DNA from: Thermodesulfobacteriota bacterium
GTDB lineage: Bacteria; Desulfobacterota; Desulfomonilia; UBA1062
DNA: 48,892 nt
Reading direction: 5' to 3'
NCBI GenBank assembly: GCA_025454155.1
Contig: JALOOZ010000001.1
Coordinates: 1-48,892 of the forward strand
This document shows positions 1,389 through 26,757 of this stretch, piece by piece; the stretch's first letter is position 1, and each line of letters starts with the position of its first letter. The notes under the pieces were generated by a model. The model did no database searches, was not told where the DNA came from, and was given only the letters and a program-made list of their open reading frames with translations. The position numbers and the translations under genes were made by a program.

Positions 1389-2039
1389 ATGCCTCGAACA
1401 CCCCGGTCACAACGTGAGATCGATCTCGTAAAAAAGGAAATCCTCGACTCCGCCTTGGAGTTCATCCTAGCGGACGGCTTCCAGAATCTCAGCATGCGCA
1501 AGCTCGCCTCCAGGCTGGGCATGACCGCCACGACCATATACAATTACTTTTCAAACAAGGACGAGATAAACCTCATGATCCGCATGCGCGGCTCCGAGTT
1601 GCTCTACCAGCGATTTCTGAAGTGCTGTGATCAGCACACCGACCCCCTCTTGAAGATGCAAGCCATGATCCGTGCCTATTTCGATTTCGGCATCAGCTAC
1701 CCTAATTACTACGATATCCTGTTCAACCTGCACACTCCCAAATACCTCGACTACATAGGGACTGATCTGGAACCTATTGCTCGAACGGAAAAGGAGTCGT
1801 CTCTGCGGAACTATGAGATCGTTGCCAGGACTCTTGCGGAGGTCATGTGCATCCGGGGCGACGTGAGCCATGATCTTGTGAAAGACAGGACCATCCAGAT
1901 GTGGTGCGAAATCCACGGTACTATCTGCCTCCATAACAGTAACTTGCTGCGTGAAATTGATGACAATCCGGCGGAATTGACAGGTCGCATGATAGACGAC
2001 GTCATCGCTCGCCTCATGAGATTCGGAGACGAGCAGTAG
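1389..2039 (+). CDS. TetR/AcrR family transcriptional regulator
   Basis: N-terminal HTH: ILDSALEFILADGFQNLSMRKLASRLGMTATTIYNYFSNKDEI. Confidence 0.93.
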   Translation: MPRTPRSQREIDLVKKEILDSALEFILADGFQNLSMRKLASRLGMTATTIYNYFSNKDEINLMIRMRGSELLYQRFLKCCDQHTDPLLKMQAMIRAYFDFGISYPNYYDILFNLHTPKYLDYIGTDLEPIARTEKESSLRNYEIVARTLAEVMCIRGDVSHDLVKDRTIQMWCEIHGTICLHNSNLLREIDDNPAELTGRMIDDVIARLMRFGDEQ

Positions 2040-2104
2040 GAAGTCGACTCTGCGCCTCGGGAAATCCGTACCGGTATCATATGCTACCTGAAAGGAGGAC
2101 TGTC

Positions 2105-5100
2105 ATGCAGCAGCATGTGGCCGCACAGCACCAGACACCCGGGGGTGCCGTGCAGAAGAAGAGATCCACGAACTTTCTCGTGAACGTGCTTTTGCACGCC
2201 ATGGCCATGTTTTTCAACAGGCGCAGCTCGCTCAGGAAGTACCTTGCGAGCGACAATGGATGGCTCAATTTCACGGTGGGGATACGGACCGAGGCCGGTT
2301 CGGTCGAGAGCGCCATCTCATTTCAGAACGGGAAGGTCTCCGTCGCCCACCACATACCCGCCAACGCCGACGTCGTGGTGATCCTCGCATCCGACACAGC
2401 GCTCAAGAAGCTCCTCACCGCCCCGACCACCGAGCAAGTCTACATGCTGCTCAAGAGCGAGATGAGGACCGAAGGCAAACAGACATACCTGCTCATGTTC
2501 CTCTTCCTCGTCTCCGTTCTCCTCCACAATCAGCAGATAAAGGGCCTGGAGAAGGAACGTGCCCACTTCAGGAAGAGCGCCTTCAGCGAATGCCCGCAGC
2601 ATCGCCCCGAATTGAGCAGGGAACTGGCCGAACGCAGGGCGCAACGCATGGTGGCGGAGTCAGTGGACCCGGGCGTGAAATTCCTGGGGGATCCCTATCT
2701 GCCGCAGTTCACCCTCGAGGACTTCCCCCGCCTGAAAAAGTTCCTCGACCTCCATTTCGACACCAGGGCACAGGTCTGCATCGAGATGCCCAAACTCCTC
2801 ACCGAGTGGCACAAGAAGAACGGCTTCGACGCCAAGCCAGACGGCACGCCGTGGGTCCCGGAGCTCAGGCGGGGGTACGCCTTCAAGTACATCATGGAAA
2901 ACCGCAGACCTATCATCCGGAAGGACGACCTCGTGGCAGGCACCACGACCTCGAAAGAGGTCGGGGCCTTACCGTATGTCGATGCGGCAGGGACATACCT
3001 CTGGCCGGAGCTCTTCACCGTACCCCACCGGCTACTCTTCCCCTACGACATCACGGAGGAGGAGGCCTGGACCCTCCACCATGAGATCTTCCCCTACTGG
3101 GCGGATAAAAACTTCAGGGAACGCCTCCGCAGCAGGCACAATGACCCACTGGCACTGCGGATCGACGAGCGTTTCGCCGTATATTTCTCCTTCAAATCCT
3201 CCGCCTTCTCACACATCATTCCGGATTTCCCTCGAATCCTTCGTCTGGGAACACACGGCATAATCGAGGAGATCCGGGCCGACATGACACGGGACCCTGG
3301 CGATGCAGGCAGGAATGCTGCACGGGAGGCCATGATCGTCTCCCTCGAGGGGCTTGCAGCCTATTCCAAGAACCTCGCGAGGCAGGCGGCTGATGATGCG
3401 GCATCAGAGGCCGACCTGAAGCGCAGGATCGAGCTGGAGAACCTCTCAGGCGTGTGCACCCGGGTGGTGGAATACCCGGCGCGCACCCTCGACGAGGCGG
3501 TCAATGCAATCTGGATCTCCATGGTGGGCGCCCATATCGAGAACACCAACGCAGGGCTGTCCCTCGGGAGGCTGGACCAGTGGCTCCAGCCGTACTTCGA
3601 GGCCGACATGGCCAAGCTCGAAACAAACCAAGAACGTGAAGCATACATCAAACACGCCATCGAGCTCATCGGTTGCTTCTTCTTCCGCTGCACCGACCAC
3701 CTCCCCTGCATGCCCTACATAGCGACAATCTACTTCGGAGGGAGTTCCTCCGACCAGGCGATCACCCTGGGGGGCGTGAACCCGGATGGCGAGGACGCAG
3801 TGAACGACATGACCTATCTTTTTCTCAAGGTCACGGAGATGCTCTCGCTCCGCGACCCCAACATGAACGCACGCTACCACCCCGGCAAGAACAGCGACAC
3901 CTACCTCAAGCGCCTCTGCGAGGTGAATCTCACCACAGCCGCAACCCCGTCCATGCACAACGACGCAGTCATCATGGAGTCGCTCAGGCAATTCAACTAC
4001 GACGAGCGAGACCTGAACGACTGGGCTGCGGTTGGGTGTGTGGAGCCCACCATCGCCGGCAAGCACACCGGACATACCAACTTCCAGCTGATCAACCTGG
4101 TGGCGGCCCTGGAGATGGCCCTCAACAACGGGACCCACCCCCTCATGCGGTGGAAACTCGGACCCGACACCGGGGTAATCGAGAATGGCGATTTCAAGAG
4201 CTTCGAACAGTTCTATGAGGCCTTTCTCACCCAATTCACTTTTCTGATCGACCAGTCCATACAGCTCAACAACTGGTATGCTGCGGAGCACCAGTACGTG
4301 CGGCCCACACCGTACATCTCCGCCCTCATCGACGGATGCAGCCGCAACGGCCTGGACGCCACGAAGGGCGGCGCAAAATACAACAGCTCCGGCACCGCCA
4401 TCATCGGGCTGGCAGACGTTACCGATTCGCTCATGGTCATCAAGAAGCTGGTCTTCGACGAAAAGAAGGTTCCTTTCGCCCACCTCAAGCGGGCCGTGGA
4501 TACCGATTTTCGGAATGACCCGGCACTCCATGCCATGGTCACCAAGAAGGTGCCCTTCTTCGGCTCCGGCAGCGACGAGGCGGTGGCCATGGCCAACCGC
4601 ATCACCAAGTTCGCCCACGACTACTACACCCCGATTCCGCACTATCGCGGCGGGAAGTACACGGTGGGCTTCTGGTCCATGTCCCAGCATGTCGCCTTCG
4701 GCACGCTTACCGGTGCGCTGCCGTCCGGTAGGCGGGCAGGCCAACCCTTCACCCCCGGCCTAACCCCGGAGCCGAACGCATCGAGAAGCCTCCTGGACAA
4801 TATGCGCGACGTGGCGCGCCTCGATCCGCACAACATCACCAACAACCTGGCCTTTAATGTAAAGATCGTTCCTTCCCCCCATGATACCCGGGAGAAGGCG
4901 GTGCAGGATATGTTCTCCTACGTGAAGACCTACTTCACCCTCGGCGGCATGCAGATGCAGATGAACGTGGTGACCTCTGACACGCTGCGGGACGCCATGG
5001 CCTACCCGGACAGCTACCGCAACCTGCTGGTCCGGATCTCGGGCTACAACGCCTACTTCGTAACCCTTCACAGAGACCTGCAGCTCGAGCTCATCCACCG

Positions 5101-5125
5101 GGCCGAGTACGGCATCGAACGGTGA
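2105..5125 (+). CDS. Glycyl radical enzyme 1 (PFL2/eliminase-like, uncharacterised) with an N-terminal SCP2-like extension
   Basis: Cys loop WAAVGCVEP, Gly loop LLVRISGYNAYF and SLGRLDQWL, plus ~190 extra N-terminal residues. RBS AGGAGG lies before ATG 2105. Confidence 0.9.
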   Translation: MQQHVAAQHQTPGGAVQKKRSTNFLVNVLLHAMAMFFNRRSSLRKYLASDNGWLNFTVGIRTEAGSVESAISFQNGKVSVAHHIPANADVVVILASDTALKKLLTAPTTEQVYMLLKSEMRTEGKQTYLLMFLFLVSVLLHNQQIKGLEKERAHFRKSAFSECPQHRPELSRELAERRAQRMVAESVDPGVKFLGDPYLPQFTLEDFPRLKKFLDLHFDTRAQVCIEMPKLLTEWHKKNGFDAKPDGTPWVPELRRGYAFKYIMENRRPIIRKDDLVAGTTTSKEVGALPYVDAAGTYLWPELFTVPHRLLFPYDITEEEAWTLHHEIFPYWADKNFRERLRSRHNDPLALRIDERFAVYFSFKSSAFSHIIPDFPRILRLGTHGIIEEIRADMTRDPGDAGRNAAREAMIVSLEGLAAYSKNLARQAADDAASEADLKRRIELENLSGVCTRVVEYPARTLDEAVNAIWISMVGAHIENTNAGLSLGRLDQWLQPYFEADMAKLETNQEREAYIKHAIELIGCFFFRCTDHLPCMPYIATIYFGGSSSDQAITLGGVNPDGEDAVNDMTYLFLKVTEMLSLRDPNMNARYHPGKNSDTYLKRLCEVNLTTAATPSMHNDAVIMESLRQFNYDERDLNDWAAVGCVEPTIAGKHTGHTNFQLINLVAALEMALNNGTHPLMRWKLGPDTGVIENGDFKSFEQFYEAFLTQFTFLIDQSIQLNNWYAAEHQYVRPTPYISALIDGCSRNGLDATKGGAKYNSSGTAIIGLADVTDSLMVIKKLVFDEKKVPFAHLKRAVDTDFRNDPALHAMVTKKVPFFGSGSDEAVAMANRITKFAHDYYTPIPHYRGGKYTVGFWSMSQHVAFGTLTGALPSGRRAGQPFTPGLTPEPNASRSLLDNMRDVARLDPHNITNNLAFNVKIVPSPHDTREKAVQDMFSYVKTYFTLGGMQMQMNVVTSDTLRDAMAYPDSYRNLLVRISGYNAYFVTLHRDLQLELIHRAEYGIER

Positions 5126-5144
5126 AGGGGAAATTCGAGGAACC

Positions 5145-6083
5145 ATGAAGAGCACCCCGGAAAAAGTTCAGCGCTCACCTCTCATCCTGGACATCAAGGG
5201 CAACTCCCTGGATGACGGCCCGGGCATCCGAAGCGTGGTCTTTTTCAAAGGCTGTCCTCTTTCATGCGTATGGTGCCATAACCCGGAAAGCAAGGGCTCC
5301 GGAGAGGAAATCTCATATGATGCGAAAGAGTGCATCGGCTGTGATACATGTCTCTCCACCTGTCCCAGGGGGGCCCTGTCGCGCGTGAACTCCCTCTATG
5401 TCGACCGGAACAGGTGCGATCTCTGCTTCGCCTGCACCGGGTTCTGCCCATCAGGTGCCCTGAGCAGGGTGGGCCGGGAGATGAGCATAGAGGAGATCGC
5501 TGCTAAGGTGATCGTGGACAAGCCCTTTTTTGAAACCTCAGGAGGGGGCGTGACACTCTCCGGAGGCGAACCGACCCTCTTCATGGACTTCGTCTCGCAG
5601 CTGCTTTCCCTCCTGAAAACCCACGGGATAGGCACCCTCCTCGAAACATGCGGCCAATTCGATCTCGATCGTTTCATGGACAGGTTGTATCCATATCTCG
5701 ATGCCATCTACTATGACATCAAGCTCATGGACTCGAAGGCTCATGAGCACTACTGCGGTGTGTCCAATGCGCGGATCCTCGACAACTTCACCAGACTGCA
5801 TGCCGCGGCTGCGGCCGACGGCAGGACGCTCCTCCCGCGGATTCCACTTATCCCTGACATCACCGATTCCACGGAAAACATTACCGGAATCGCCGGTTTC
5901 CTTGGTTGCCTCGGCGTCAAGAAAGCCGCGCTGTTGGCCTATAATCCCCTCTGGCACGAGAAGAGCGCCAAGATAGGAGCCGACGACCCCTGTCGCGACA
6001 ACCATCTGATGAGCTCCTGGCCGGAGTGCGAACGCCTGGAGCGCGCCAGGGAGATCTTCATGCAAGCGGGGATTGAGCCATGA
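5145..6083 (+). CDS. Glycyl-radical enzyme activating protein 1 (radical SAM with 2x[4Fe-4S] insert)
   Basis: DGPGIRSVVFFKGCPLSCVWCHNPES; CIGCDTCLSTCP and CDLCFACTGFCP; GGGVTLSGGEP. Confidence 0.95.
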   Translation: MKSTPEKVQRSPLILDIKGNSLDDGPGIRSVVFFKGCPLSCVWCHNPESKGSGEEISYDAKECIGCDTCLSTCPRGALSRVNSLYVDRNRCDLCFACTGFCPSGALSRVGREMSIEEIAAKVIVDKPFFETSGGGVTLSGGEPTLFMDFVSQLLSLLKTHGIGTLLETCGQFDLDRFMDRLYPYLDAIYYDIKLMDSKAHEHYCGVSNARILDNFTRLHAAAAADGRTLLPRIPLIPDITDSTENITGIAGFLGCLGVKKAALLAYNPLWHEKSAKIGADDPCRDNHLMSSWPECERLERAREIFMQAGIEP

Positions 6084-6108
6084 GGGACTGGTCTTGGGAG
6101 GATTCACC

Positions 6109-7356
6109 ATGAAGGGACTCATGTTCAATTACAGCCTCCCCAGGATCGCCCTGAAAAAGGTCGGACTGGGCGGAGATTTCTTCCTGGTCAAATATAGCGA
6201 AACATGGCCGGTTCCGAAGATCTTTCACCCGAACCAGGTTCTGGTGAAAACCCGATTGGCAGGCATCTGCGCATCAGACCTGCATCAGATGACGGTCTCG
6301 ATGTCTCTGTATCCCAGCATCATGGCATCTCCCGTGAACCCCGTTCCCATGGGCCATGAAGTCGTGGGAACCATAGCTGAAGTCGGGTCAGCCGTCAGCG
6401 GGCTCCGGCCGGGGGATCGGGTTGTATATAATCCCGTGGCCCGGTGCTCCTTCTTCGGATTCAGGCCCTGCCCCAGCTGCCTGCAAGGTAACTACCAGCA
6501 CTGCTTCTGCCTTCTAGGCATTGGGGACGGGACCGATCGCGAGCGTGAGTGCGGCGGCAGGAGGAGGTTCGGGGGGTTCGGTGGAGGCGGGTTCAGCGAG
6601 AACCTGCTGGGGTATGAGAAACAATTCCACCTGGTTCCCGATCATGTGCCGGACGATGTGGCGGTGCTCGCCGAGCCCTTCACCATTGCCCTGCATGCGG
6701 TGGCACGTCATATGCCCCGGCATGATGACACCGTTGTCGTGGTGGGTGCGGGGATCATAGGTCTCCTTACCATAAAGGCGCTGAGGGCACTGGGCTCCCG
6801 ATGTCGGATCATCTCGCTGGCACGCTATCCCATGCAGGTGGAAATGGCCATCAAGCTCGGCGCCACCGAGGTCATATCGGAACGCGACATGAAAAAGCTC
6901 TATGACAGGGTTGCCGGAGCGACTGGGGGATCACTCTTTGCCCCGCTTCTCAGCAAGCAGGTGCTCTACGGCAACAAGGGCCCCGACATAATCTACGACA
7001 GCGTGGCCTCGGAATCTTCGGTGGAAGACGACCTCCGCCTTGTCAGGAGCAACGGTAAGGTCGTGCTCACCGGCCTGGATTTCCATATCACCCGAAAGGT
7101 GGACTGGTCGCTGGTGGTATGGAAAGAGATCGAGGTCACCGGAACCCTCTTTTCAGGAAAAGAGCCCATCGAAGAAAATGAGTTGGACGCCTTTGACATG
7201 GCACTAAAGCTCATGGCGAGCGATCCCTGTGGTTTCTCAGGCCTTGTCACCAACACCTTCCCGATTGAAAGATACCGGGAGGCCGTACAGTGCTTCCGTT
7301 CGAAAAAGGCGACCAACGCCATAAAAGTGGTGCTGGATTTCAGGGGGGTAAGTTAA
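6109..7356 (+). CDS. Zinc-dependent alcohol/polyol dehydrogenase (MDR family)
   Basis: GICASD, GHE, a structural Zn Cys cluster (C..CPSC..C) and Rossmann motif VGAGIIG. RBS GGAGG lies before ATG 6109. Confidence 0.88.
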   Translation: MKGLMFNYSLPRIALKKVGLGGDFFLVKYSETWPVPKIFHPNQVLVKTRLAGICASDLHQMTVSMSLYPSIMASPVNPVPMGHEVVGTIAEVGSAVSGLRPGDRVVYNPVARCSFFGFRPCPSCLQGNYQHCFCLLGIGDGTDRERECGGRRRFGGFGGGGFSENLLGYEKQFHLVPDHVPDDVAVLAEPFTIALHAVARHMPRHDDTVVVVGAGIIGLLTIKALRALGSRCRIISLARYPMQVEMAIKLGATEVISERDMKKLYDRVAGATGGSLFAPLLSKQVLYGNKGPDIIYDSVASESSVEDDLRLVRSNGKVVLTGLDFHITRKVDWSLVVWKEIEVTGTLFSGKEPIEENELDAFDMALKLMASDPCGFSGLVTNTFPIERYREAVQCFRSKKATNAIKVVLDFRGVS

Positions 7357-7383
7357 CACATCGCTCCGTCTTAAGGATGTGAT

Positions 7384-8850
7384 TCACCTCCGCCTCCCGC
7401 CGAAGATAGAACCGAGGACACCGCGGATGATCTGCCTGCCGACCTGGCTGCCGATGGCATGGGCAGCGCTCTTGGCCATGGCCGAGAAGAGGTCTGTGCC
7501 CTGGGAATGCCCCTTCGGGGATGCCTGCTTCTCCGCACGTACCTCCTCCTGTTCCTTCTCCGCCTGCTCGGCCCTGACCTTGAGCATCTCAAAGGCCGAT
7601 TCGCGGTCAATGGCCTTTTCGTAGTGGCCGTATATCACCGATCCCCTGATGATCTCCAGCCGCTCCTGGGCGCTCAGCGGGGTCAGCCGGCTGTGAGGGG
7701 GGCAGATGAAGGCCCGCTGCACCACCGTGGGGGCCCCTTTCTCGTCGAGCATCGACACCAGGGCCTCGCCGACCTCCAGCTCGGTTATCACCCTGGCCAC
7801 GTCCAGCCCCTCCCCTGAGCGGAATGTTTCCGCCGCTGCCTTCACGCTCTTCTGGTCTCTGGGAGTGAAGGCCCTCAGGGCATGCTGGACCCTGTTCCCC
7901 AGCTGTCCGAGGACGGTCTCCGGCAGGTCGATGGGATTCTGGGTGATGAAATAGATGCCCACACCCTTGGAGCGGATGAGGCGTACAACCTGCTCGATCT
8001 TCTCCACCAGTGCCTTGGGGGCATCGTCGAAGAGGAGATGTGCCTCATCGAAGAAGAAGACCAGCCTGGGCTTTTCAGGGTCGCCCACCTCCGGGAGCTG
8101 CTCGAAGAGCTCGGAGAGCATCCAGAGCAGAAAGGTGGCGTACAGCTTCGGAGACTGCATAAGCCTGTCGGCGGCGAGGATGTTGATGACCCCCTGCGCC
8201 TTCGTGTCGGCCTGCATGAGATCGTGGAGATTCAGGGCCGGCTCCCCGAAGAACTTTTCGCCGCCCTGATCCTCGAGGGTCAGCAGGCTGCGCTGGATGG
8301 CGCCGATGCTGGCCGATGAGATGTTCCCGTACTGCGTCTTGAACTGTTCCGCCTTATCTCCGACAAACTGGAGCATGGAGCGCAGATCCTTCAGGTCGAG
8401 CAGGAGGAGCCCATTGTCATCGGCGATCCTGAACACGATGGAGAGGACCCCGCTCTGGATCTCGTTGAGCATGAGGATGCGGCCCAGAAGCACCGGGCCC
8501 ATCTCTGAAACTGTGGTGCGGACCGGATGGCCCTGCTCCCCGAAGACGTCCCAGAAGACCACCGGATAACCTTCGAAGCCGAATCCCTCGAGGCCCAGCT
8601 GCCTGATGCGATCGTTGACCTTGGGATTATCACCGCCGGGCAGGGGAAGGCCGGAGAGGTCGCCCTTCACGTCCGCCATGAAGACGGGCACCCCGAAGGC
8701 ACTGAACTGCTCGGCCAGTGTCCTCAGCGTGATCGTCTTTCCGGTGCCAGTTGCACCCGCGATGAGGCCGTGGCGGTTGGCCATTCTCGGGATGATGGCG
8801 ATGTCGGACTGTGCCTTTGCAATGACAAGAGAACTCTGGTGTGCGCCCAT
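7384..8850 (-). CDS. DUF853/YjgR-type HerA-like P-loop ATPase
   Basis: ANRHGLIAGATGTGKT (Walker A), FFFDEAHLLF (Walker B), LIRSKGVG and GRQIIRGVLGSIFGG. RBS AAGGAG lies before ATG 8850. Confidence 0.9.
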   Translation of the reverse strand: MGAHQSSLVIAKAQSDIAIIPRMANRHGLIAGATGTGKTITLRTLAEQFSAFGVPVFMADVKGDLSGLPLPGGDNPKVNDRIRQLGLEGFGFEGYPVVFWDVFGEQGHPVRTTVSEMGPVLLGRILMLNEIQSGVLSIVFRIADDNGLLLLDLKDLRSMLQFVGDKAEQFKTQYGNISSASIGAIQRSLLTLEDQGGEKFFGEPALNLHDLMQADTKAQGVINILAADRLMQSPKLYATFLLWMLSELFEQLPEVGDPEKPRLVFFFDEAHLLFDDAPKALVEKIEQVVRLIRSKGVGIYFITQNPIDLPETVLGQLGNRVQHALRAFTPRDQKSVKAAAETFRSGEGLDVARVITELEVGEALVSMLDEKGAPTVVQRAFICPPHSRLTPLSAQERLEIIRGSVIYGHYEKAIDRESAFEMLKVRAEQAEKEQEEVRAEKQASPKGHSQGTDLFSAMAKSAAHAIGSQVGRQIIRGVLGSIFGGRRR

Positions 8851-8861
8851 GGTCACTCCTT

Positions 8862-9754: not shown

Positions 9755-9758
9755 GTCA

Positions 9759-15079: not shown

Positions 15080-15300
15080 ATCGAAGCAAGGGTGCCGATA
15101 TCGACCGACTATCATACAGGCCCAGGGGTGGATACTTCGAGCCGAAAAGGGACAGTTTCGGGAGGGCTTCGTTCTGCATGCCCGGGGTGTGCTCTCTGGC
15201 CGCCCTCTCCATGGCGGCCGAAGACGAGCATTGGAAGATCTCCAGACTGACACCCAGGCACGAGCGGGATGCTCCTCGAGACAAGGTCATGATCACATGA
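15076..15300 (+). CDS. Small hypothetical ORF (74 aa) or gene remnant
   Basis: ATGA overlap with the upstream gene and an AAGGAG RBS. No recognisable motif. Confidence 0.35.
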   Translation: MNRSKGADIDRLSYRPRGGYFEPKRDSFGRASFCMPGVCSLAALSMAAEDEHWKISRLTPRHERDAPRDKVMIT

Positions 15301-15328
15301 GCGGGATTGCTCCAGGGAGGATTCAGCA

Positions 15329-17710
15329 ATGAGGGCACAGACAGAAAGGATCGAACGCATCCGCGAGGCGCGGCAGACTCCGGAGCGCTTCAGGCGCATA
15401 AAGGAAGCCCTTTTCGCCCAGAAGGTTCACCTGTGCACGGAGCGGGCGATTCTCATCACCGAGTTCTTCAAGGAACACGATAACCCGGACGAGCCCATGG
15501 TGATCCGAAAGGCCAAGGCCCTGCGCTACCTGCTCAGGAGAAAGTCGGTGAAAATCTTCGCGGACGAGCTCATTGCAGGTAACGTGGGCGGTCACCGCAA
15601 ATCATGCATCATCCAGCCCGAGCTTGCCGGAACGGTCATGAGTGAAGAGCTCCTGTGGATGGACAGGAGGAAGACGAATCCCTATCCCATCTCCTGGGCC
15701 GACCGGATGCGACTCCTCTTCAAGGTCAATCTCTACTGGTACTTCCGGAACATGGGCGCGCGTGCATTCAAGTGGTACAGCCCCAGCCTGTCGCGCTTCC
15801 TGCTGGAGCAGCTTTCGGCCACTTACTATCTCATCAACGAGAGCGGCGGCATCGGCCATTTCCTGCCCGGTTACGATAGGATGATCGCACTGGGAATCAG
15901 GGGTTACATGGAGGTCCTGGATGAGCCGAAGAGCGACCTCCAGGCCGCGGCGCTCATTGTCTGTGAAGGCCTCGCCGACTATGCAAACAGGCTCTCAGAG
16001 GAGGCCTCACGCCTCGCCGTCCGTGAAGGAGACCCGGCACGGAAGCAAGAGCTCCGGGAGATCGCCCGCATCTGCGCCAAGGTGCCCCTGGAGCCTGCCG
16101 AGACGCTGCACGAGGCCCTCCAGTCACTGTGGCTCACGCACATGGCGGTTTGTCTGGAGGGATTGAACTCCGCCATATCGTTCGGCCGGATCGACCAGTA
16201 CCTCTACCCCTTCTACAGGGCCGACATCGACTCAGGCCGGCTGACCCGCGAGCAGGCCCTGGATCTGCTGCTGTGCTTCTCGGCCAAGACCACCGAGCAC
16301 ATGTTCCTGCTTTCCAGCAGGGTCAGCGAGTATCACGGGGGCTATCTGGTGGCCCAGGCCGCCACGGTGGGCGGTGTGGACGGCGAGGGCAGGGACGCGG
16401 TGAACGATCTCACCTGGCTGTTCCTCGACGTCATGGAGCTCGCAGGGCTGCGCGATCCGAACTACATGGCCCGGATCAGCACGTCATCTCCGGAGGAGTA
16501 TGTGCGCCGAGCCGTGGAGGTGGCCTGCAAGGGCAACGCGGTGCCCGGCCTGTTCAACGACGAGGCGACCATCGCTGCTCTCATGGCCCACGGCTACCCG
16601 GAGGGTGAGGCACGGGACTACGGCGTGGTCGGCTGTGTGGAACCCACTTTGCCGGGAAGGAGCTTCTGCTCCACCGATGCCGCTCTCTTCAACCTGCCCA
16701 TGTGCCTGGTCCTCGCCCTGAACCGGGGCAGGAAACCTGGCTCCAGACTGCGAATCGGGGCAAGGACGCCCGATCCATCGGGCTTCAGGTCCATGGATGA
16801 TGTCATCGAAGCCTTCAGAATCCAGGTGGACCACATGGTAAGACGTCTGATCAAGGACATCCAGGTCATGGAGAAGGCCAACCGCGACTACCACCCCACT
16901 CCTTTTTCCTCTATGCTGGTGAGGGGGTGCCTGGAGAGCGGCAACGACGTGACCGCGGGAGGTGCCCTGTACAACTCGAGCGGCATCCAGGGCGTGGGCG
17001 TGGCAGACGTGGCCGACTCCCTTGCGGCCATGGACGAGGTGGTGTTCAGGCGCAGGTCGCACAGCCTGAACGAGGTGGTCGAGGCCATGAAGGTGAATTT
17101 CAAGGGGCTTGGGAAGCTCAGGGCCGAGCTGCTCGCCGCCCCCAAGTTCGGCAATGACCACGCACTCCCCGACCGCCATGCAGACCTGGTGGCGCACATC
17201 TTCCACGATGCGCTGGCAAAACACCGCAGCACCCGGGGAGGCCCCTACATCTCAGGGTTCTACTCGTCCACCACCCACGTGGGCTTCGGCCACAGGACCG
17301 GCGCCCTGCCGAGCGGCAGGATGGCGGGCGAGCCCTTTGCGGCAAGCATGGGGTGCTGCAACGGGAGCGACAGGCAGGGTCCCACGGCCCTGCTCAACTC
17401 CGTGGCTGCAGTGGACTCGAAGCTCTCCCCGAACGGCTATGCCCTGAACCTGCGCTTCGATGTGCCGTCGCTGAAGGGGGACCGTGCCGTTGACACCATG
17501 ACCGCGCTGGCAAAGGGCTTCTTCTCCCAGGGCGGCATGGAAATGCAGCTCAACGTGCTCGATCCAGAGGTGCTGGAGGATGCCAGGGCCAACCCGGGCA
17601 GGCACCCTGGCATCGTGGTGCGTGTGGCCGGCTACTGTGCTTACTTCGTCGATCTGCCGGACACGGTGAAGGACGAGATCATCAAACGGACCAGGATCTC
17701 ACTGGAGTAG
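15329..17710 (+). CDS. Glycyl radical enzyme 3 (eliminase-like, uncharacterised; no adjacent dedicated activase)
   Basis: YGVVGCVEP, IVVRVAGYCAYF, GGIGHFLPGY and SFGRIDQYL. RBS GGGAGG. Confidence 0.92.
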   Translation: MRAQTERIERIREARQTPERFRRIKEALFAQKVHLCTERAILITEFFKEHDNPDEPMVIRKAKALRYLLRRKSVKIFADELIAGNVGGHRKSCIIQPELAGTVMSEELLWMDRRKTNPYPISWADRMRLLFKVNLYWYFRNMGARAFKWYSPSLSRFLLEQLSATYYLINESGGIGHFLPGYDRMIALGIRGYMEVLDEPKSDLQAAALIVCEGLADYANRLSEEASRLAVREGDPARKQELREIARICAKVPLEPAETLHEALQSLWLTHMAVCLEGLNSAISFGRIDQYLYPFYRADIDSGRLTREQALDLLLCFSAKTTEHMFLLSSRVSEYHGGYLVAQAATVGGVDGEGRDAVNDLTWLFLDVMELAGLRDPNYMARISTSSPEEYVRRAVEVACKGNAVPGLFNDEATIAALMAHGYPEGEARDYGVVGCVEPTLPGRSFCSTDAALFNLPMCLVLALNRGRKPGSRLRIGARTPDPSGFRSMDDVIEAFRIQVDHMVRRLIKDIQVMEKANRDYHPTPFSSMLVRGCLESGNDVTAGGALYNSSGIQGVGVADVADSLAAMDEVVFRRRSHSLNEVVEAMKVNFKGLGKLRAELLAAPKFGNDHALPDRHADLVAHIFHDALAKHRSTRGGPYISGFYSSTTHVGFGHRTGALPSGRMAGEPFAASMGCCNGSDRQGPTALLNSVAAVDSKLSPNGYALNLRFDVPSLKGDRAVDTMTALAKGFFSQGGMEMQLNVLDPEVLEDARANPGRHPGIVVRVAGYCAYFVDLPDTVKDEIIKRTRISLE

Positions 17711-17726
17711 GTTCCGCACCGACGGT

Positions 17727-18737
17727 TCACCCGAGATGCTCACGGCAGACCGACGAGAAACGCCGGAGATCCTTGTAGTCCATGACCGTGGACATGGGCA
17801 GGTTGGTCTCTTCGATGCCCGCCTCCCTGATGGCTGCCACCGGGTTCAGGCCGCCGATGAGGATGACGCCCATCTTGTTCACGTCCACCGGTGCCTGGCA
17901 GACGGACTCCCCCATCTTGCCCATGGTGATCACCGGTGTCATGCCCACGTCCTTCAGATCCCTGATGACCTCCTCGACTCCGTCCCTGCACACCCCGGCG
18001 ATCTCGGAGAGGTTGGCCAGGATCTTGCCTTCGCCGTGCTGCAGCACTCCCCGAACCGCGGTCATGCGGGCGCTGATGAAGGCCTCAGAGGGGTCAAGGG
18101 AAGTGCCGGAGTAATGGATGAGCTCCACGAACCGCATGGGCTTGTGTTCGCTCATCTGGAGGATGCCGCCGAACTTGGATTCCACCGGTATGCCACGCTT
18201 GAGGAGCATGCCGGTGAGCACGATGCTGCACACCGTTGCAAAGCCGATGCATCCGTCGGGCACGTGCACGTCGCCCAGGAAAGCCCCTTCAGGGGCTACC
18301 GCCACCAGCTCGCTGACGCAGCACCCCTTGTCGAAGGCCGTCTTCATACCCTTGAGGGCATCCCTGAAATGCTGCTGGGGAAAGAACGAGACGTTGATGG
18401 GGACCATGCCCCTGCCCGCACGTGCATCGAAGGTGGTTTTGTAGGAGAGGATCTCCATGCGCGAGATGCAGTAGCCAACCTTTTCGTGGACCCTGGCGTT
18501 CCTGAGCTCCTCGATGCCCTTTGCCGTAATGACCCTGCCGTCGCGGCGGCCCACGAACCTGGTCAGTTCCTTGGTGTCCATGAACTGGAGGTGGTACCGC
18601 ACGGCCCGTTCGCTCAGGCTCACCCCGTAGTCCTTGAGCCTGCGTGCGATGATCCGCGCCCCCACCGAACCCTGCGCCTGGTTCAGGATGCGCAATATCA
18701 GGATGCTCTTCCGTTCCATCTCGTCGTAGGTGAACAT
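17727..18737 (-). CDS. nrpR: Nitrogen regulator NrpR (wHTH plus a single NRD/DUF128 domain)
   Basis: GARIIARRL..SERAVRYHL..D..ELT, GRVITAKGIEEL, FATVCSIVL.G.LLKRGIP, RFVELIHYSGTSLDPSEAFI and GGLNPVAA. An NrpR-type operator sits upstream. Confidence 0.88.
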   Translation of the reverse strand: MFTYDEMERKSILILRILNQAQGSVGARIIARRLKDYGVSLSERAVRYHLQFMDTKELTRFVGRRDGRVITAKGIEELRNARVHEKVGYCISRMEILSYKTTFDARAGRGMVPINVSFFPQQHFRDALKGMKTAFDKGCCVSELVAVAPEGAFLGDVHVPDGCIGFATVCSIVLTGMLLKRGIPVESKFGGILQMSEHKPMRFVELIHYSGTSLDPSEAFISARMTAVRGVLQHGEGKILANLSEIAGVCRDGVEEVIRDLKDVGMTPVITMGKMGESVCQAPVDVNKMGVILIGGLNPVAAIREAGIEETNLPMSTVMDYKDLRRFSSVCREHLG

Positions 18738-18757
18738 GGCTGGACTCCTTGGCCATA

Positions 18758-18771
18758 GGAAACCGATTTCC
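18758..18771. promoter_or_regulatory. NrpR operator GGAA-N6-TTCC
   Basis: GGAAACCGATTTCC lies 20 bp upstream of the nrpR start. A perfect TTGACA lies on the minus strand at 18800-18805. Confidence 0.8.
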
Positions 18772-18869
18772 GATGATGGTTACACGCTTGCACAGGGCCT
18801 GTCAACGGTGATCCCCTGGGGATGCGATTGCTGATTGACATCGATATCCTCAGGGCTTAGGGGAAAACC

Positions 18870-19532
18870 ATGGGGCAGATCAGGGACAATGCAGCCAGGC
18901 TCCTCGCAGGGATCCCCCGGGGCATAACGGTGCTGGCCGCGGCCAAGGCGAGGTATGCATCAGAGATCCTGGAGGTCATCGATGCAGGCATCACCGACAT
19001 CGGCGAGAATTATTTCCAGGAATCGCGCGCCATGATCGAGGCCATCGGCGATAAGGCCACCTGGCACTTCATCGGCCATATCCAGAAAAACAAGGTCAAA
19101 CACATCGTGCCGCTCTTCGACATGATCCAGACCGTGGACAGCCTGGAGCTCGCGGCCATGATCGATCAGCATGCGGCAAAGCACGGCAAGGTCATGCCCG
19201 TGCTCGTCGAGGTGAACAGCGGCCGCGAAGAGAACAAGCACGGCGCCATGCCCGGGGCGGTGGCAGAGCTGATCATGCAGATGGCTGTGCTGCCGAACCT
19301 CCGCGTGAAGGGACTCATGACCATGGGGCCTTTCCTGGACGACTTCGAGGGGCTCAGGCCGTTCTTCCGGCAGACCAGGGCTCTGTTCGAGGAGATCGGT
19401 TCACAGGATATCCCGAACGTACGGATGGAGATCCTCTCCATGGGCATGAGCGACTCCTTTCCCATAGCCATCGAGGAAGGGGCCACCATGGTACGCATCG
19501 GTACCATGATCTTCGGTCAACGGCCATACTGA
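18870..19532 (+). CDS. yggS: PLP homeostasis protein YggS/PROSC
   Basis: GENYFQE, WHFIGHIQKNKVK and LSMGMSDSFPIAIEEGATMVRIGTMIFG. Confidence 0.95.
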   Translation: MGQIRDNAARLLAGIPRGITVLAAAKARYASEILEVIDAGITDIGENYFQESRAMIEAIGDKATWHFIGHIQKNKVKHIVPLFDMIQTVDSLELAAMIDQHAAKHGKVMPVLVEVNSGREENKHGAMPGAVAELIMQMAVLPNLRVKGLMTMGPFLDDFEGLRPFFRQTRALFEEIGSQDIPNVRMEILSMGMSDSFPIAIEEGATMVRIGTMIFGQRPY

Positions 19533-19598
19533 GGATTCAGGGCCTATTCATTCCATCCATGCCCCTAGCACTCTCATATGGATCTGATGCAAGACTCA

Positions 19599-19607
19599 TG
19601 ATATAAT
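19599..19607 (+). promoter_or_regulatory. Extended -10 promoter element upstream of GRE4
   Basis: TG-A-TATAAT (perfect TGnTATAAT) ~85 bp before the GRE4 ATG. Confidence 0.55.
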
Positions 19608-19689
19608 TAGGATAATCGGATTGCGCAGCGGTGGTCCCCGCATCAGGAAATCACGGGCGAAGGAGTTCCACCAGAAGGAGGTTTTTCCC

Positions 19690-22164
19690 ATGGCTGGATT
19701 ACCGCGTTTCTCGGCATCCTTGACATCCGCGGCGGTGGCCCCTGTGGAAGGGTTTACCCCCCCGACTCCCCGCATCGCCGCCATCAGGGCGAAGCTGCTG
19801 TCCACGCCGTACTCGATCTGTCTGGAACGGCCGAAGCTCATGGAGGAATTCTGGAGTTCCAGGGAGGGTCGCCGGAGCGCCAAGCTTGAGCATCCCCTGG
19901 TCCATCGAGCCCTGACCCTGCAGTACATATTCTCTCACCGCAAGCCCCGCATTTACGATGATGAGATCATCATCGGCAACATGACCTCCAAGCGCATTGC
20001 AGCCAACTACTACATCGAGGGCGGATCGATCAACATCCTGGAGGATTTCGCCCGGCTGGGGAAACGGACCATTCCCCTGAAACTGACCATCCAGGAAACC
20101 GCTGGAGTCCTTCACCTCGGGCTCAAGAACGCGTTCAAGAGCGTGGGCGCAAAGGCGCTCCTCAAGCCGGGGCGTCTTTCCTATTTTCTGGATTTCTTCA
20201 GGGCCAAACGCCACTTCGTGACGGAGGAGGCGGGCATCGGCCATCAGGTCGGAAACTACTGGATGGTCGTACATGAGGGTTTGCGCGGCCCGTATGGGGA
20301 GGCCAAACAGAGGCTGGAGGAGGGGAGACTTGCAGACGGATCCCGCCTTGATGCCGATCAGAGGGCCTTCTTCAGCTCAGTGCTGATCACCATAGACGGC
20401 ATCAGAAAGATGGCGGAAAACCTTGCCGCCGAGGCCGAACATCTCGCGCAGATGAAGGGGGAGTCTGAACAGCGAAGGGCCGAACTCCTGGCAGCGGCCG
20501 CCGCCTGCCGACGGGTTCCCTTTGAACCCGCCCGGACCTATCTCGAGGGTTTGCAGGCAACCTGGCTCATCCACATGGCCCTGAACCTGGAGGACTTCGA
20601 ACAGGGGCTCTCCTTCGGCCGGATGGACCAGATCCTGCTGCCCCTCTATCGGAGCGATGTTGAACTGGGCCGGCTGAACACCGGGCAGGCCACGGAGATG
20701 ACGGCCTGTTTCTGCCTGAAGACCTGCGAGACCATGCCGCTCTATTCCCAGCGGGTGGATCAGTTCTTCAGCGGCAACGGGGTCGCCCAGGCCTTTACCC
20801 TGGGGGGCACGGACGAAAAGGGGAATGACCTGACCAACGAGCTTTCCGGCCTTATCCTGGACGCCTATGCCCAGGTCCTGACCCGTGAGCCGGCTGTGCA
20901 TGTCCGCATCCATCCCGCCACACCCGAATGGTTTTTCCAGAAAAGCGTGGAGCTTCTCCAGATGGGCACCAGCAGGCCCTCCTTCTTCGGGGACACGGCC
21001 GTAGTCAGAGCCCTCCAGGAAGCTGGCATGACCAGGGAGCACGCCCGGGACTACGCCGTCATCGGCTGCGTGGAGATGGCAAGCCAGGGACGCACGTACA
21101 ACTCTTCGGACGCCGCGCTCTTCAACCTACCTCTCTGCCTGGAGCTGGCACTCAATGAAGGCAGGCGCTTCCACGGAAAGGCCCGGATCGAGGGCCGCCG
21201 CCGCTTCGGCGCCCCCACACCGCCGGTCTCCACGATGAAAACCTTTGACGACGTACTCGATGCTTTCCGGGCCCAGGTCCGCCACGGGGTCGATGACATG
21301 GTGAAGGTGATCGGATGGCTGGAGGAGGTCTACCGGACAATCCGGCCGACACCGGTGAATTCGATCCTCACCGAGGGCTGCCTCGAGACGGGCAAGGATG
21401 TGACCTGGGGGGGCGGCCTTTATGATTACACCTCCATCCAGGCGGCAGGGCTCGCCGATGCGGGCGACTCCCTCTACGCCCTGAAGAGGATCATCTTTGA
21501 TCAGAAGCGTTTCAGCCTGGACGAGTTTGTCGGGATCCTGCAGGACAACTTCCGCGGCAGGGAGGACCTGAGGGTTGAACTGGCCTCGAAGCTGCCACGG
21601 TACGGCAACGGCGATCCGGACGTGGACCATATGACCCAGCTCGCGGCCGACGCCTTTTCCGACGCCCTTTCAGCCCACAAGAACTCGCGCGGAGGGCGGT
21701 ATGTTCCCGGGTTCTACTCCATGACCTGCCACATCGGCTTCGGCCGCGTGACCGGGGCCCTTCCCAACGGGCGGCCGGCCGGCCGGCGGCTCTCCAACGG
21801 TCTTGCCCCGGTGGATGGGTGCGACCGAATGGGTCCCACGGCCGTTCTGCGTTCAGCAGCCTCCCTGGACAGCAGGAAGTGGATGAACTGCCATGCCTTG
21901 AACCTGAAGTTCGACAGGCAGATAGTCCAGGGCAAGACTGGACGGAAGGCCCTGGTGAGCCTCTTGAAGAATTATTTCGCCCTCGGGGGGATGCAGGTTC
22001 AGGTGAACATACTCGATACCGAGACGCTCAAGGCTGCGAAGAGGGACCCCGCATCATACCCCGGTATCGTGGTCCGTGTGGCCGGTTATTGTGCCTATTT
22101 CAATGACCTCCAGCCCGCCGTGCAGGACGAGATCATCGAGAGGACAGCCCATGGTATCACCTGA
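19690..22164 (+). CDS. Glycyl radical enzyme 4 (eliminase-like, uncharacterised)
   Basis: YAVIGCVEM, IVVRVAGYCAYF, AGIGHQVGNY and SFGRMDQIL. RBS AGGAGG lies before ATG 19690. Confidence 0.92.
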   Translation: MAGLPRFSASLTSAAVAPVEGFTPPTPRIAAIRAKLLSTPYSICLERPKLMEEFWSSREGRRSAKLEHPLVHRALTLQYIFSHRKPRIYDDEIIIGNMTSKRIAANYYIEGGSINILEDFARLGKRTIPLKLTIQETAGVLHLGLKNAFKSVGAKALLKPGRLSYFLDFFRAKRHFVTEEAGIGHQVGNYWMVVHEGLRGPYGEAKQRLEEGRLADGSRLDADQRAFFSSVLITIDGIRKMAENLAAEAEHLAQMKGESEQRRAELLAAAAACRRVPFEPARTYLEGLQATWLIHMALNLEDFEQGLSFGRMDQILLPLYRSDVELGRLNTGQATEMTACFCLKTCETMPLYSQRVDQFFSGNGVAQAFTLGGTDEKGNDLTNELSGLILDAYAQVLTREPAVHVRIHPATPEWFFQKSVELLQMGTSRPSFFGDTAVVRALQEAGMTREHARDYAVIGCVEMASQGRTYNSSDAALFNLPLCLELALNEGRRFHGKARIEGRRRFGAPTPPVSTMKTFDDVLDAFRAQVRHGVDDMVKVIGWLEEVYRTIRPTPVNSILTEGCLETGKDVTWGGGLYDYTSIQAAGLADAGDSLYALKRIIFDQKRFSLDEFVGILQDNFRGREDLRVELASKLPRYGNGDPDVDHMTQLAADAFSDALSAHKNSRGGRYVPGFYSMTCHIGFGRVTGALPNGRPAGRRLSNGLAPVDGCDRMGPTAVLRSAASLDSRKWMNCHALNLKFDRQIVQGKTGRKALVSLLKNYFALGGMQVQVNILDTETLKAAKRDPASYPGIVVRVAGYCAYFNDLQPAVQDEIIERTAHGIT

Positions 22165-23203
22165 GCCTCTCGTCTTCTCCCTGCAGCATTTCTGCCTTCA
22201 CGACGGCCCCGGGATACGGAGCCTGGTCTTTTTCAAAGGGTGCCCCTTGCGGTGTCCCTGGTGCCAGAACGTCGAATCCTGGAAGGCGGGCTCAGAGATT
22301 GCATTCAAACCCGCGCTCTGCATCAACTGCGGTACGTGTGTAAGGAAATGCCCGGAACACGCCCTGGCCGAAGTCGGTACGAGGGATACAACAAGGTGCA
22401 GGGGGTGTTTCACCTGTATCGACAGCTGCCCATCGGGTGCCATGACTCTCTTCGGCGTCCAACGGTCTCCCGAAGATGTTGTGGAGGAGCTGCGCCCCGA
22501 GTTCTCGCTCTTCACGACCTCCGGAGGCGGGGTTACCTTCACCGGCGGGGAACCAACCCTGTATCCGGACTTTTCCGCCAGGCTGGCAAGGTCTCTGCGC
22601 ACCGAAGGCATTCACATCGCCATGGAGACCTGTGGATTCTTCGACCTCAAGAGGCTGCGTCCTCTCCTCCGGGAGCTTCGTCTCGTACTCTTCGACATCA
22701 AGATCTATGACAGAGAGCAGCACCGGCAGATGTGCGGTGCCGACAACACGGTGATCAAAAAGAACCTGAAGGCCCTTGTCGAGGCCGGAAGCGGGCAGGG
22801 GGCGCCTGCTGTCTGGCCGCGCCTTCCACTGGTGCCGGGTCTGACCGACGGGCAGGATAACATCAAAGGCTGGGCCGGCTTTCTTCGTTCACTGGGGATC
22901 TCCTTCCTGACCATTGTACCCTATCACCCCATGGGAGCCAGCAAGCGCCGGTGGCTGGGGCTCCCGGCCGGCCCTGAACTGCGAGTGCCTACAGATGCCG
23001 AGATTCAGACCGCCGGTGGGTTGTTCTCAGCCGAAGGAATCATGACCTATAAGCCCGGCGAGGAACCTTTTCCGGAGGATTCCATCGGTCCGGCACAGGG
23101 ACTGCCCCGCGATCTTCCCGGGGCCGCACATGACCGGCGGGTCGAACACCGGGGCCTGCCTACCGATGGTCACGGGCCAACAGGGCTGAATACCCCTCGA
23201 TGA
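22151..23203 (+). CDS. Glycyl-radical enzyme activating protein 3
   Basis: HDGPGIRSLVFFKGCPLRCPWCQNVES; CINCGTCVRKCP and CRGCFTCIDSCP; GGGVTFTGGEP. The start overlaps the GRE4 end by 14 nt. Confidence 0.93.
   Translation: MVSPEPLVFSLQHFCLHDGPGIRSLVFFKGCPLRCPWCQNVESWKAGSEIAFKPALCINCGTCVRKCPEHALAEVGTRDTTRCRGCFTCIDSCPSGAMTLFGVQRSPEDVVEELRPEFSLFTTSGGGVTFTGGEPTLYPDFSARLARSLRTEGIHIAMETCGFFDLKRLRPLLRELRLVLFDIKIYDREQHRQMCGADNTVIKKNLKALVEAGSGQGAPAVWPRLPLVPGLTDGQDNIKGWAGFLRSLGISFLTIVPYHPMGASKRRWLGLPAGPELRVPTDAEIQTAGGLFSAEGIMTYKPGEEPFPEDSIGPAQGLPRDLPGAAHDRRVEHRGLPTDGHGPTGLNTPR

Positions 23204-24117: not shown

Positions 24118-26757
<2,640 letters not shown>

Follow-up and report, generated by a model that had tools for sequence, protein, structure and literature searches.

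Introduction

Glycyl radical enzymes (GREs) catalyze reactions that are difficult to achieve by other means in the absence of oxygen. Section 7 of PMC13450708 gives as the known state of the field that whole GRE clades still lack a function, while its sections 5.6 and 5.7 describe a C-x-E loop in all GRE eliminases and isomerases, the Glu of which is bonded to the substrate hydroxyl, and His164 of glycerol dehydratase (GD) as the residue that protonates the leaving hydroxyl. In the present study, we analyzed contig JALOOZ010000001.1 of a Thermodesulfobacteriota bacterium (GCA_025454155.1; 2.76 Mb, 249 contigs, 86% complete) over its entire length of 48,892 nucleotides, referred to as the window. 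Four GREs, designated GRE1 to GRE4, are encoded within 22 kb of this DNA together with three activases (AE1 to AE3; Table 1). A first-pass annotation had proposed a single co-evolved island of paralogues acting on related substrates. We consider the region likely to consist of three separate GRE modules, which lie side by side between the HemN and ClpB genes of a GRE-rich sediment bacterium, probably of the Syntrophales type.

GD and propanediol dehydratase (PD; 1R8W/1R9D, 5I2A) resemble the four enzymes in their fold, Gly loop, C-x-E loop, His164, and an activase with a two-cluster insert, and an alcohol dehydrogenase gene adjoins GRE1 as in diol-dehydratase operons. However, GRE1, GRE3, and GRE4 score only 360-455 bits against these structures, GRE1 has an additional predicted SCP2 domain, and no microcompartment genes were seen in this comparison. 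CutC, the second-best match in the PDB of GRE3 (477 bits) and GRE4 (411 bits), also has the C-x-E loop in common, whereas its model TIGR04394 gave 318-475 bits for the four GREs against a cut-off of 1050, and the His164 column holds Asp in CutC (presumably Asp216) and His in GRE3, by direct alignment, and in the other three families. The closest solved relative of GRE2 to GRE4, Archaeoglobus fulgidus PFL2 (2F3O), shares the C-x-E loop and the His and is still distant; its function is debated as that of a dehydratase (GD) or an alkylsuccinate synthase (MASS) (PMC13450708).

The IslA/IseG and HpsG group provides the second-best match in the PDB of GRE2 (289 bits), again with the C-x-E loop in common. 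The sulfonate triad of IslA, Arg189/Gln193/Arg678 (PMC13450708), aligned with Ala169/His173/Pro673 of GRE2, Arg189 and Gln193 being placed by an ungapped count-back just before the printed alignment and Gln193 falling in the His164 column, and on this mapping, a role as a sulfonate C-S lyase was rejected for GRE2 only. In BSS, MASS, and 4-hydroxyphenylacetate decarboxylase (HPAD), the GRE is always accompanied by an extra protein, as is the GRE2 clade by a split-barrel protein; the accessory subunits of the former are small Fe-S or rubredoxin-like proteins (PMC13450708), whereas the putative partner of GRE2 is a tandem split-barrel protein of ~280 amino acids (aa) with a flavin-binding-type fold and without Cys clusters.

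Results

Three modules and their occurrence in relatives

Module A consists of a TetR regulator gene, GRE1 with its predicted SCP2 domain, an activase, and a zinc-dependent alcohol dehydrogenase; module B of a GntR/FadR regulator gene, GRE2, an activase, and a tandem split-barrel protein, followed by GRE3; and module C of GRE4 and an activase. In a genome of the same genus (G115; 98% complete), HemN, HerA, the crotonase, GntR, GRE2, AE2, the split-barrel protein, and GRE3 are encoded in order, and 95 bp separate HemN from HerA where the window holds module A as a 6.1-kb TetR-GRE1-AE1-MDR insert (1282-7384). An alignment of the borders of module A to this empty site revealed no direct repeats. 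The spacer in G115 (L111:13601-13696) contains a GC-rich hairpin, GGTGCCCCGG...CCGGGGCACC.

PFL-like genes numbered two in G115, zero in a second genome of the genus, and four, about 10, and one in three further genomes of the same family, where they were on different contigs. Since the GRE counts of relatives differ and the contigs are separate, the row of four GREs was found in this genome only among the six family genomes examined, and the conservation of the four-GRE neighborhood, which was looked for after the first-pass annotation, did not emerge; GRE modules occur on different contigs in the relatives G043, G321, and G180. Each GRE is, by its sequence, a member of a large uncharacterized family of its own, with its own distribution across several phyla, and these genes are not unique because the families are widespread.

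The synteny of the HerA ATPase was confined to G115, as was the crotonase gene, which adjoins the GRE2 module in one of 15 orthologous contexts, and tblastn gave no match for the YggS gene beside the four GRE4 orthologues or for the alpha/beta hydrolase in the four GRE4 loci. The crotonase and hydrolase had been regarded as GRE accessories; in the loci compared, they were not conserved partners.

Relationship to characterized GREs

All four proteins matched both the ten-stranded PFL-like barrel domain (PF02901, E between 1e-121 and 1e-172) and the C-terminal glycyl radical domain (PF01228, E between 1e-20 and 1e-25). Their Gly loops are RISGY (GRE1), RITGY (GRE2), and RVAGY (GRE3 and GRE4), their Cys loops are GCVEP, GCLEN, GCVEP, and GCVEM, respectively, and they are 29-39% identical in pairwise comparisons. 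Pfam and the translations bear out the description in the first-pass annotation of four full-length GREs with these Cys loops and intact Gly loops, all of a non-PFL type with a C-x-E loop. PFL proper was rejected because the loops read C-V/L-E instead of adjacent Cys-Cys and the TIGR01255 scores, 89-141 bits, lie below the cut-off of 994.2.

Characterized GREs were compared through the cut-offs of curated hidden Markov models (HMMs), PDB sequence scores, and residue-level alignments. None of the four passed TIGR01774 (PFL2/glycerol dehydratase subfamily; cut-off 678.2), with scores of 452.5, 398.4, 597.7, and 607.2 for GRE1 to GRE4. The best NCBIfam equivalogs were HypD for GRE1 (372 vs. a cut-off of 1100), HpsG for GRE2 (371.4 vs. 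1000), CutC for GRE3 (475.3 vs. 1050), and HpfG for GRE4 (463.1 vs. 1000), and the models for HypD, CutC, HpsG, HpfG, PflD (PRK09983), indoleacetate decarboxylase, and HPAD collectively gave 169-475 bits, short of their cut-offs of 1000-1150. Among all PDB sequences, the top match of GRE1 was PD (363 bits), while that of GRE2, GRE3, and GRE4 was A. fulgidus PFL2 (292, 495, and 452 bits); lower scores were obtained for GD, CutC, HypD, HpyG (8ID1), HpzG (8IOF), PflD, YbiW, and HplG, as well as for IslA, IseG, HpsG, BSS, MASS, and HPAD. For comparison, GRE2 aligned with itself reaches 1984 bits, and with its orthologues about 1330-1760. The four GREs accordingly do not appear to be orthologous to any characterized GRE, a result that held on every test run and agrees with the earlier proposal (best equivalogs of 371-475 bits vs. 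cut-offs of 1000-1100; best PDB matches of 292-495 bits).

Active sites

Active-site positions were read from a MAFFT alignment of GRE1 to GRE4 with 20, 20, 14, and 4 family members, giving families of 21, 21, 15, and 5, and columns were anchored on a direct HMMER alignment of GRE3 with GD. Direct HMMER alignments of GRE1 with GD and PD gave an identical residue mapping, and another confirmed the His164 equivalence in GRE2. Cys433, Glu435, the radical Gly, and the His164 position (GD numbering; His177 in GRE3) are invariant in the four families. In contrast, His281 of GD is replaced by Ala, Pro, Ser, and Gln in the families of GRE1, GRE2, GRE3, and GRE4, Ser282 by Gly, Gly, Ala, and Gly, and Tyr339 by Asp/Asn, Gly, Val/Ala, and Ala; Asp447 and Tyr640 are replaced in the GRE1 (Asn and Trp) and GRE2 (Val and Leu) families and remain Asp and Tyr in those of GRE3 and GRE4. 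Identity as a GD or PD was rejected on these grounds, as no family keeps the full active-site set; its retention, which had been raised as evidence that would speak against novelty, was found in none of the four. The GRE2 pocket is distinctly hydrophobic in the alignment (P, G, G, V, L, W, and Y).

Open reading frames (ORFs) for beta or gamma Fe-S small subunits were not found in the intergenic gaps of 19-250 bp, and no Cys-rich small ORF was present in 15079-15329, the sole gap able to hold one, in agreement with the earlier statement that such subunits are lacking.

Since the Cys, Glu, and His164 equivalents are kept in the four families, all four enzymes are inferred to be radical eliminases or isomerases of hydroxylated and probably hydrophobic substrates. 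The leaving group would be of the oxygen type, or the enzymes may be ring-opening isomerases with a new pocket. The pocket residues differ between families and from those of every characterized GRE, and, therefore, the substrates are suggested to be new.

An SCP2-fold domain in GRE1

The GRE1 family comprised 1439 proteins at E <= 0.001 among 8000 scored candidates. Its best 120 members are 61-88% identical, all but one have 962-1045 residues, and they carry generic names only. Members of the family were recovered from 145 or more species-level genomes of several phyla, with genome labels of Desulfobacterales, Syntrophales/Smithella, Spirochaetota/Leptospirales, Actinomycetota, Chloroflexota, and Myxococcota.

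GRE1 has 215 additional N-terminal residues, conserved in the family (33 homologues aligned), in which a domain with an SCP2 fold occupies approximately residues 28-170. The Pfam SCP2 model PF02036 gave 16.2 bits (E 0.014), below its gathering score of 21.3. An AlphaFold2 (AF2) model of the N-terminus (pLDDT 80.1) had 35 Foldseek matches in the PDB at E <= 0.001, and those listed were all SCP2 proteins or domains: the best was UbiJ-SCP2 (6H6P, E 5e-7), and the others included sterol carrier proteins and alkylsulfatase SCP2 domains, with TM of 0.55-0.71 on the target. The fold resembles the C-terminus of the alkylsulfatase SdsA1/Pisa1, UbiJ, and the SCP2-like domain of MFE-2, in which SCP2 domains bind hydrophobic tails; it differs in being fused to a GRE, and sequence similarity is marginal. 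As modeled, the N-terminus of the GRE1 family is a conserved SCP2 lipid-carrier fold. Searches of open-access full text for an SCP2 or sterol-carrier domain with a GRE returned nothing relevant, and a term search of PMC13450708 found no mention of such a fusion, which is undescribed as far as these searches reach. The probable role of the SCP2 domain is to recruit a lipid-like, hydrophobic substrate with a hydroxyl group, and the neighboring zinc dehydrogenase may handle the carbonyl or alcohol.

Neighborhoods were fetched for 80 GRE1 loci, with more than 1.5 kb present downstream in 57 and upstream in 65, so that the following counts are lower bounds. An AE1 orthologue lies directly downstream in 58-60 of the 80 loci, a TetR-like ORF upstream in 30, and a dehydrogenase nearby in 24 (SDR in 19, MDR in 7); no other gene recurs in more than 15. 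Actinomycetota loci (L039, L046, L056, L067, and L042) have a context unlike that of Desulfobacterota loci, with a class-III aminotransferase, DUF6206 protein, PfkB-type kinase, and ferredoxin-domain protein nearby.

GRE2, its split-barrel partner, and GRE3

The best 120 members of the GRE2 family are 71-98% identical and 786-877 aa in length, most of them 836-842. Among 401 sampled genomes of the phylum, this genome included, 26 hold a GRE2 orthologue (at least 67% identity) and a further 24 a sister form (45-54% identity). The split-barrel protein is encoded downstream of GRE2-clade genes at 18 of 18 loci (14 orthologous, 4 of the sister form), and an activase adjoins them at 14. Across the 401 genomes, the split-barrel protein was found in 49, namely, in 48 of the 50 with a GRE2-clade gene and one of the 351 without; the latter match is a 47-residue fragment, and in one of the two genomes in which the partner was missed (G187), a divergent copy was seen at the locus. 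Related genomes are not independent, and, counted by genus, the figures are 29 and 30 of 254.

The split-barrel protein scored 29.0 bits against PF01243 (cut-off 28.1), and its AF2 model (pLDDT 88.6, pTM 0.86) has two split beta-barrels in one chain. Foldseek matched HupZ and FMN-binding proteins (E about 3e-7 for both) and F420 reductases, which are single-barrel proteins covering about half of it. It belongs to a small family, of which 355 representatives were found among 1.84 billion at E <= 0.001 and which is named only as "PNPOx domain". Complex prediction with GRE2 (residues 130-838) scored 0.21 against a mark of 0.32, a value that weighs neither for nor against binding. Open-access full text yielded nothing relevant on GRE partners of the pyridoxamine-oxidase, split-barrel, or FMN-binding type, and, as far as searches reach, this strict pairing is undescribed. 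The split-barrel protein is probably a partner dedicated to GRE2, serving either as an electron donor or as a flavin-dependent enzyme that catalyzes the next step. In the limonenylsuccinate synthase operon, a PNPOx-like protein of unassigned role, LssP, is encoded and expressed (PMC12583861, section 4.1), and PNPOx-like proteins may, after this example, be a recurring accessory of GRE operons. In the parts available, the studies on benzene activation (PMC13101534), Atribacteria (PMC6776118), and limonene (PMC12583861) concern other systems, and the remark on LssP was the only relevant point.

Residues 1-168 of GRE2 (10533-11036) lie outside the Pfam PFL-like match, which begins at profile position 155; they had no Pfam match even at E 10, yet their conservation within the family is complete (100% coverage across the best 120). 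With tblastn, a GntR gene was located upstream of the GRE2 orthologue in 8 of 15 contexts, and with clustering, at 7 of 18 loci. A PAS-domain hybrid histidine kinase of ~686 aa is encoded beside the GRE2 module at 7 of 18 loci (L119 and L121-L126 among them), where it may stand in for GntR as the regulator.

GRE3 lacks a dedicated activase. Its orthologues (at least 59% identity) occur in 15 of 400 other genomes, and the gene adjoins a GRE2-type module in four genomes, namely, this one (G000), G115, G321, and G054 (sister module). No activase was found near GRE3 in 13 loci, except for G054, where the GRE2-type module adjoins. A GRE2-clade gene is present in 14 of the 15 genomes with a GRE3 orthologue, with which a reliance of GRE3 on AE2 fits, and GRE3 probably uses this activase. 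The GRE3 orthologue in G321 (L114, G321:C46, 4479-6032 and the adjoining frame) is split into open frames of 547 and 312 aa that cover PFL-like positions 4-527 and 525-647, as by a frameshift, pseudogene formation, or sequencing error. A copy of NrpR that is 68% identical lies near it (L114:1110-2117).

GRE4

GRE4 orthologues (at least 63% identity) were present in 4 of 400 other genomes, all of which also hold a GRE2-clade gene. An activase adjoins them at two of the four loci, with no other conserved partner. A large protein collection yielded more than 100 cluster representatives of the GRE4 family with identities of at least 62%, from Syntrophales, Desulfomonilia, Chloroflexi, Bacillota, and Desulfatibacillum. 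The listed ORF is likely to be too long: orthologues align from residues 23-46 and most listed members have 812-827 aa, which points to Met24 at 19690 as the true start, giving 824 aa. AE3 likely starts at 22151.

Gene map and integrity of the region

Genes were mapped from an ORF listing and profile scans with Pfam and NCBIfam (Table 1).

Table 1. Genes in the GRE region of the window and its flanks
Gene product	Position	Strand	Evidence	Remark
HemN-like	2-1282	+	ORF/profile scan	Left housekeeping flank
TetR-family regulator	1389-2039	+	Pfam TetR_N E 1.1e-11, TetR_C_33	Module A, gene 1
GRE1, 1014 aa	2081-5125	+	Pfam PFL-like E 1.9e-155, Gly_radical E 5.2e-21	Module A
Activase AE1	5145-6083	+	TIGR02494, 265.3 bits	Module A; radical-SAM protein with a pair of ferredoxin-type cluster motifs
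MDR zinc-dependent alcohol dehydrogenase, 427 aa	6073-7356	+	Pfam ADH_N, ADH_zinc_N	Module A, end
HerA_C-type P-loop ATPase	about 7384-8892	-	Pfam HerA_C E 5.5e-223	Neighbor, outside GRE modules
Crotonase/enoyl-CoA hydratase family	8862-9716	-	Pfam ECH_1 E 2.3e-42	Neighbor, divergent from GntR gene
GntR/FadR-type regulator	9793-10536	+	Pfam GntR, FCD, FadR_C	Module B, gene 1
GRE2, 838 aa	10533-13049	+	Pfam PFL-like E 4.1e-121, Gly_radical E 1.7e-20	Module B
Activase AE2	13206-14219	+	TIGR02494, 311.7 bits	Module B
Tandem split-barrel (PNPOx/FMN-binding-like) protein, 287 aa	14216-15079	+	Pfam PNPOx_N PF01243	Module B
GRE3, 793 aa	15329-17710	+	Pfam PFL-like E 8e-172, Gly_radical E 4.4e-21	Module B
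NrpR-family regulator	17727-18737	-	Pfam NRD1_2 E 1.3e-78, HTH_12	
YggS-family PLP-binding protein	18870-19532	+	TIGR00044, 175.6 bits vs. cut-off 106.25	
GRE4, 847-aa ORF	19621-22164	+	Pfam PFL-like E 6.4e-145, Gly_radical E 8e-25	Module C
Activase AE3	22076-23203	+	TIGR02494, 268.2 bits	Module C
Alpha/beta hydrolase, 255 aa	23317-24084	+	Pfam Hydrolase_4 E 1.6e-12	
ClpB	24118-26922	-	ORF/profile scan	Right housekeeping flank

The three activases with two-cluster inserts reported earlier were confirmed, as each passed TIGR02494 (cut-off 174.35 bits) and carries a CxxxCxxC site that is followed by a pair of CxxCxxCxxxC motifs. Two dedicated regulators had been counted; TetR and GntR stand, and the NrpR-family gene makes a third. 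NrpR is best known as an archaeal nitrogen repressor. The accessory MDR, crotonase, PNPOx-like, and hydrolase genes were likewise recovered by Pfam, except that the hydrolase lies just beyond the end of the region as originally delimited. The end of the GntR/FadR gene overlaps the start of GRE2 by four bases, and the YggS-family gene is probably a housekeeping gene.

Four of the six PFL-like matches in the genome are within the window, and, in a simulation of random placement over 2.76 Mb, at least four of six genes fell inside 22 kb at a rate of 2.65e-5; GRE clustering exceeds chance. Of the two other genes, one encodes a full-length GRE (contig C153:12459-15014, +), which passed TIGR01774 (690.1 vs. 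678.2) and no equivalog; its flanking genes comprise two of the SDR type and one that is CoA-transferase-like. The other gene, accompanied by an activase gene, is an N-terminal fragment situated where its contig ends (C24:1-1152, -, and 1418-2614, -).

A chimeric assembly is unlikely because positions 1000-20999 are matched almost identically by contigs of four further public metagenome runs (wetland, freshwater sediment, and soil), which bridge most junctions: the pieces listed cover HemN|TetR, AE1|MDR, crotonase|GntR|GRE2, split-barrel|GRE3, GRE3|NrpR, NrpR|YggS, and YggS|GRE4, and no bridge was among them for GRE1|AE1 or MDR|HerA. One metagenome run had an even depth of ~5 over all 30 bins. 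In two of the four runs, the summed contig depth over 7670-8336, part of the HerA_C gene, reached 45 and 148 against ~2-7 elsewhere; related genes of other organisms are the probable source because many contigs there are 90-95% alike. The metagenome runs that contained at least half of the sampled words of the stretch were all from wetland, sediment, soil, or biofilm samples, and no RNA data set was among the 21 runs listed.

GC content is even throughout the window (0.55-0.64), which contains no tRNA genes. A scan of 4500-24400 returned five promoter-like sites (3.9 expected) and 14 terminator-like sites (11.6 expected), counts that are not above chance; a promoter-like site with 10 of 12 matching positions lies at 9726-9754, upstream of the GntR gene. 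Downstream of ClpB, the plus strand encodes a 2-oxoacid:ferredoxin oxidoreductase pair (33319-35689), a PaaK-like AMP-forming ligase (39585-40874), and an aldehyde:ferredoxin oxidoreductase (41338-43095), the last of which could oxidize aldehydes from a GRE dehydratase, but is at least 18 kb away.

Discussion

Regarding the organization of the region, several points weigh against an arrangement of separate modules of eliminases. Four GREs in 22 kb are far from random, and the cluster may, for this reason, reflect some shared selection or regulation. The co-occurrence of GRE2, GRE3, and GRE4 in genomes could simply reflect GRE-rich genomes and non-independent relatives. As functional clues, the neighborhoods of GRE4 offer none, and those of GRE3 share no gene at more than 4 of 13 loci. 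PFL2 gives no assignment for GRE2 to GRE4 because its own function is unsettled. The positions of GRE4 and most of those of GRE2 were mapped through a single MAFFT alignment, and the GD residue numbers, with the exception of Cys433, Glu435, and His164, are those we take to apply. The reaction proposed below is drawn from motif conservation. HPAD likewise has a C-x-E loop, and the loop alone is, for this reason, no proof of elimination.

A single co-evolved island, in which four paralogous lyases would act on related substrates in one pathway, was nevertheless considered unlikely. It would account for the presence of four of the six genomic PFL-like genes within 22 kb (chance rate about 2.65e-5), all on the same strand, for the GRE2-clade gene in 4/4 GRE4 genomes and 14/15 GRE3 genomes, and for the Cys/Glu/His set common to the four enzymes. 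However, their pairwise identity is just 29-39%, they belong to separate families with separate distributions and strongly different pocket residues, and the three regulators are of separate families. Module A is absent from its site in the same genus, the modules are dispersed over contigs in G043, G321, and G180, and the crotonase and hydrolase are conserved with no GRE. The island put forward in the first-pass annotation is accordingly not upheld.

Unusual X-succinate synthases, by which one or more of the enzymes, foremost GRE3 and GRE4 or the hydrophobic-pocket GRE2, would activate hydrocarbons through addition to fumarate without small subunits, appear improbable. The best match in the PDB of GRE2 to GRE4 is 2F3O, a proposed MASS (PMC13450708), and a PNPOx-like protein, LssP, occurs in the limonenylsuccinate synthase operon (PMC12583861). 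GRE1- and GRE4-family members are present in the alkane/alkene degrader Desulfatibacillum aliphaticivorans, and GRE1-family members in metagenome-assembled genomes (MAGs) labeled Smithella and Desulfosudis oleivorans; moreover, the GRE1 and GRE2 pockets are hydrophobic. On the other hand, BSS and MASS gave the lowest scores of the non-PFL classes (163-220 bits vs. 290-495 for eliminases), no beta or gamma genes were found and there is no intergenic room for them, the Glu and His that handle the hydroxyl and leaving group are invariant, and succinyl-CoA-transferase and mutase genes were not seen in the window by profile scans.

Aryl- or alkyl-acetate decarboxylases like HPAD, IAD, and PAD may be dismissed as very improbable, since, despite the C-x-E loop of HPAD and a PaaK-like ligase with aldehyde:ferredoxin and 2-oxoacid:ferredoxin oxidoreductases at 33-43 kb, typical of aromatic amino-acid fermentation, the IAD and HPAD equivalogs gave 169-344 bits against 1100-1150 and scored lower than the eliminase models with each of the four GREs, the HPAD match in the PDB was 102-167 bits, the HPAD-type small subunit was not found, and the fermentation genes are more than 10 kb distant, past ClpB.

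For the four enzymes as eliminases or isomerases in separate modules, a common reaction is suggested from the conserved residues. The activase and SAM would generate a radical on the glycine of the GRE, which would be transferred to the Cys, and the resulting thiyl radical would abstract hydrogen from the carbinol carbon of the substrate. The Glu would take the proton from that hydroxyl while the His protonates the adjacent leaving group, for which an ether or hydroxyl oxygen is the most likely candidate, and the carbonyl radical would then regain hydrogen. The net reaction would be a radical 1,2-elimination or ring-opening isomerization that yields an aldehyde or ketone.

It is tentatively suggested, as a possibility that we consider doubtful in its combined form, that SCP2-GREs are the first GREs with lipid or water-insoluble substrates and, at the same time, that the GRE2 clade is an obligate two-protein system the activase of which is borrowed by GRE3. 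The fused carrier domain of the former would feed the substrate into the barrel, and a possible reaction is a radical-based removal of water from long-chain diols or glyceryl ethers, by which ether lipids could be broken without oxygen; in the GRE2 system, the tandem split-barrel flavoprotein would work with the radical enzyme. Both have testable handles, namely, the SCP2-GRE fusion in at least 145 species-level genomes and a GRE2 clade that almost never occurs without the split-barrel protein. The window brings together four such clades, each with a likely activase, and represents a ready cloning set. If the substrates are lipids or hydrophobic alcohols, these enzymes would provide a previously unrecognized route by which carbon is turned over anaerobically in wetlands and sediments.

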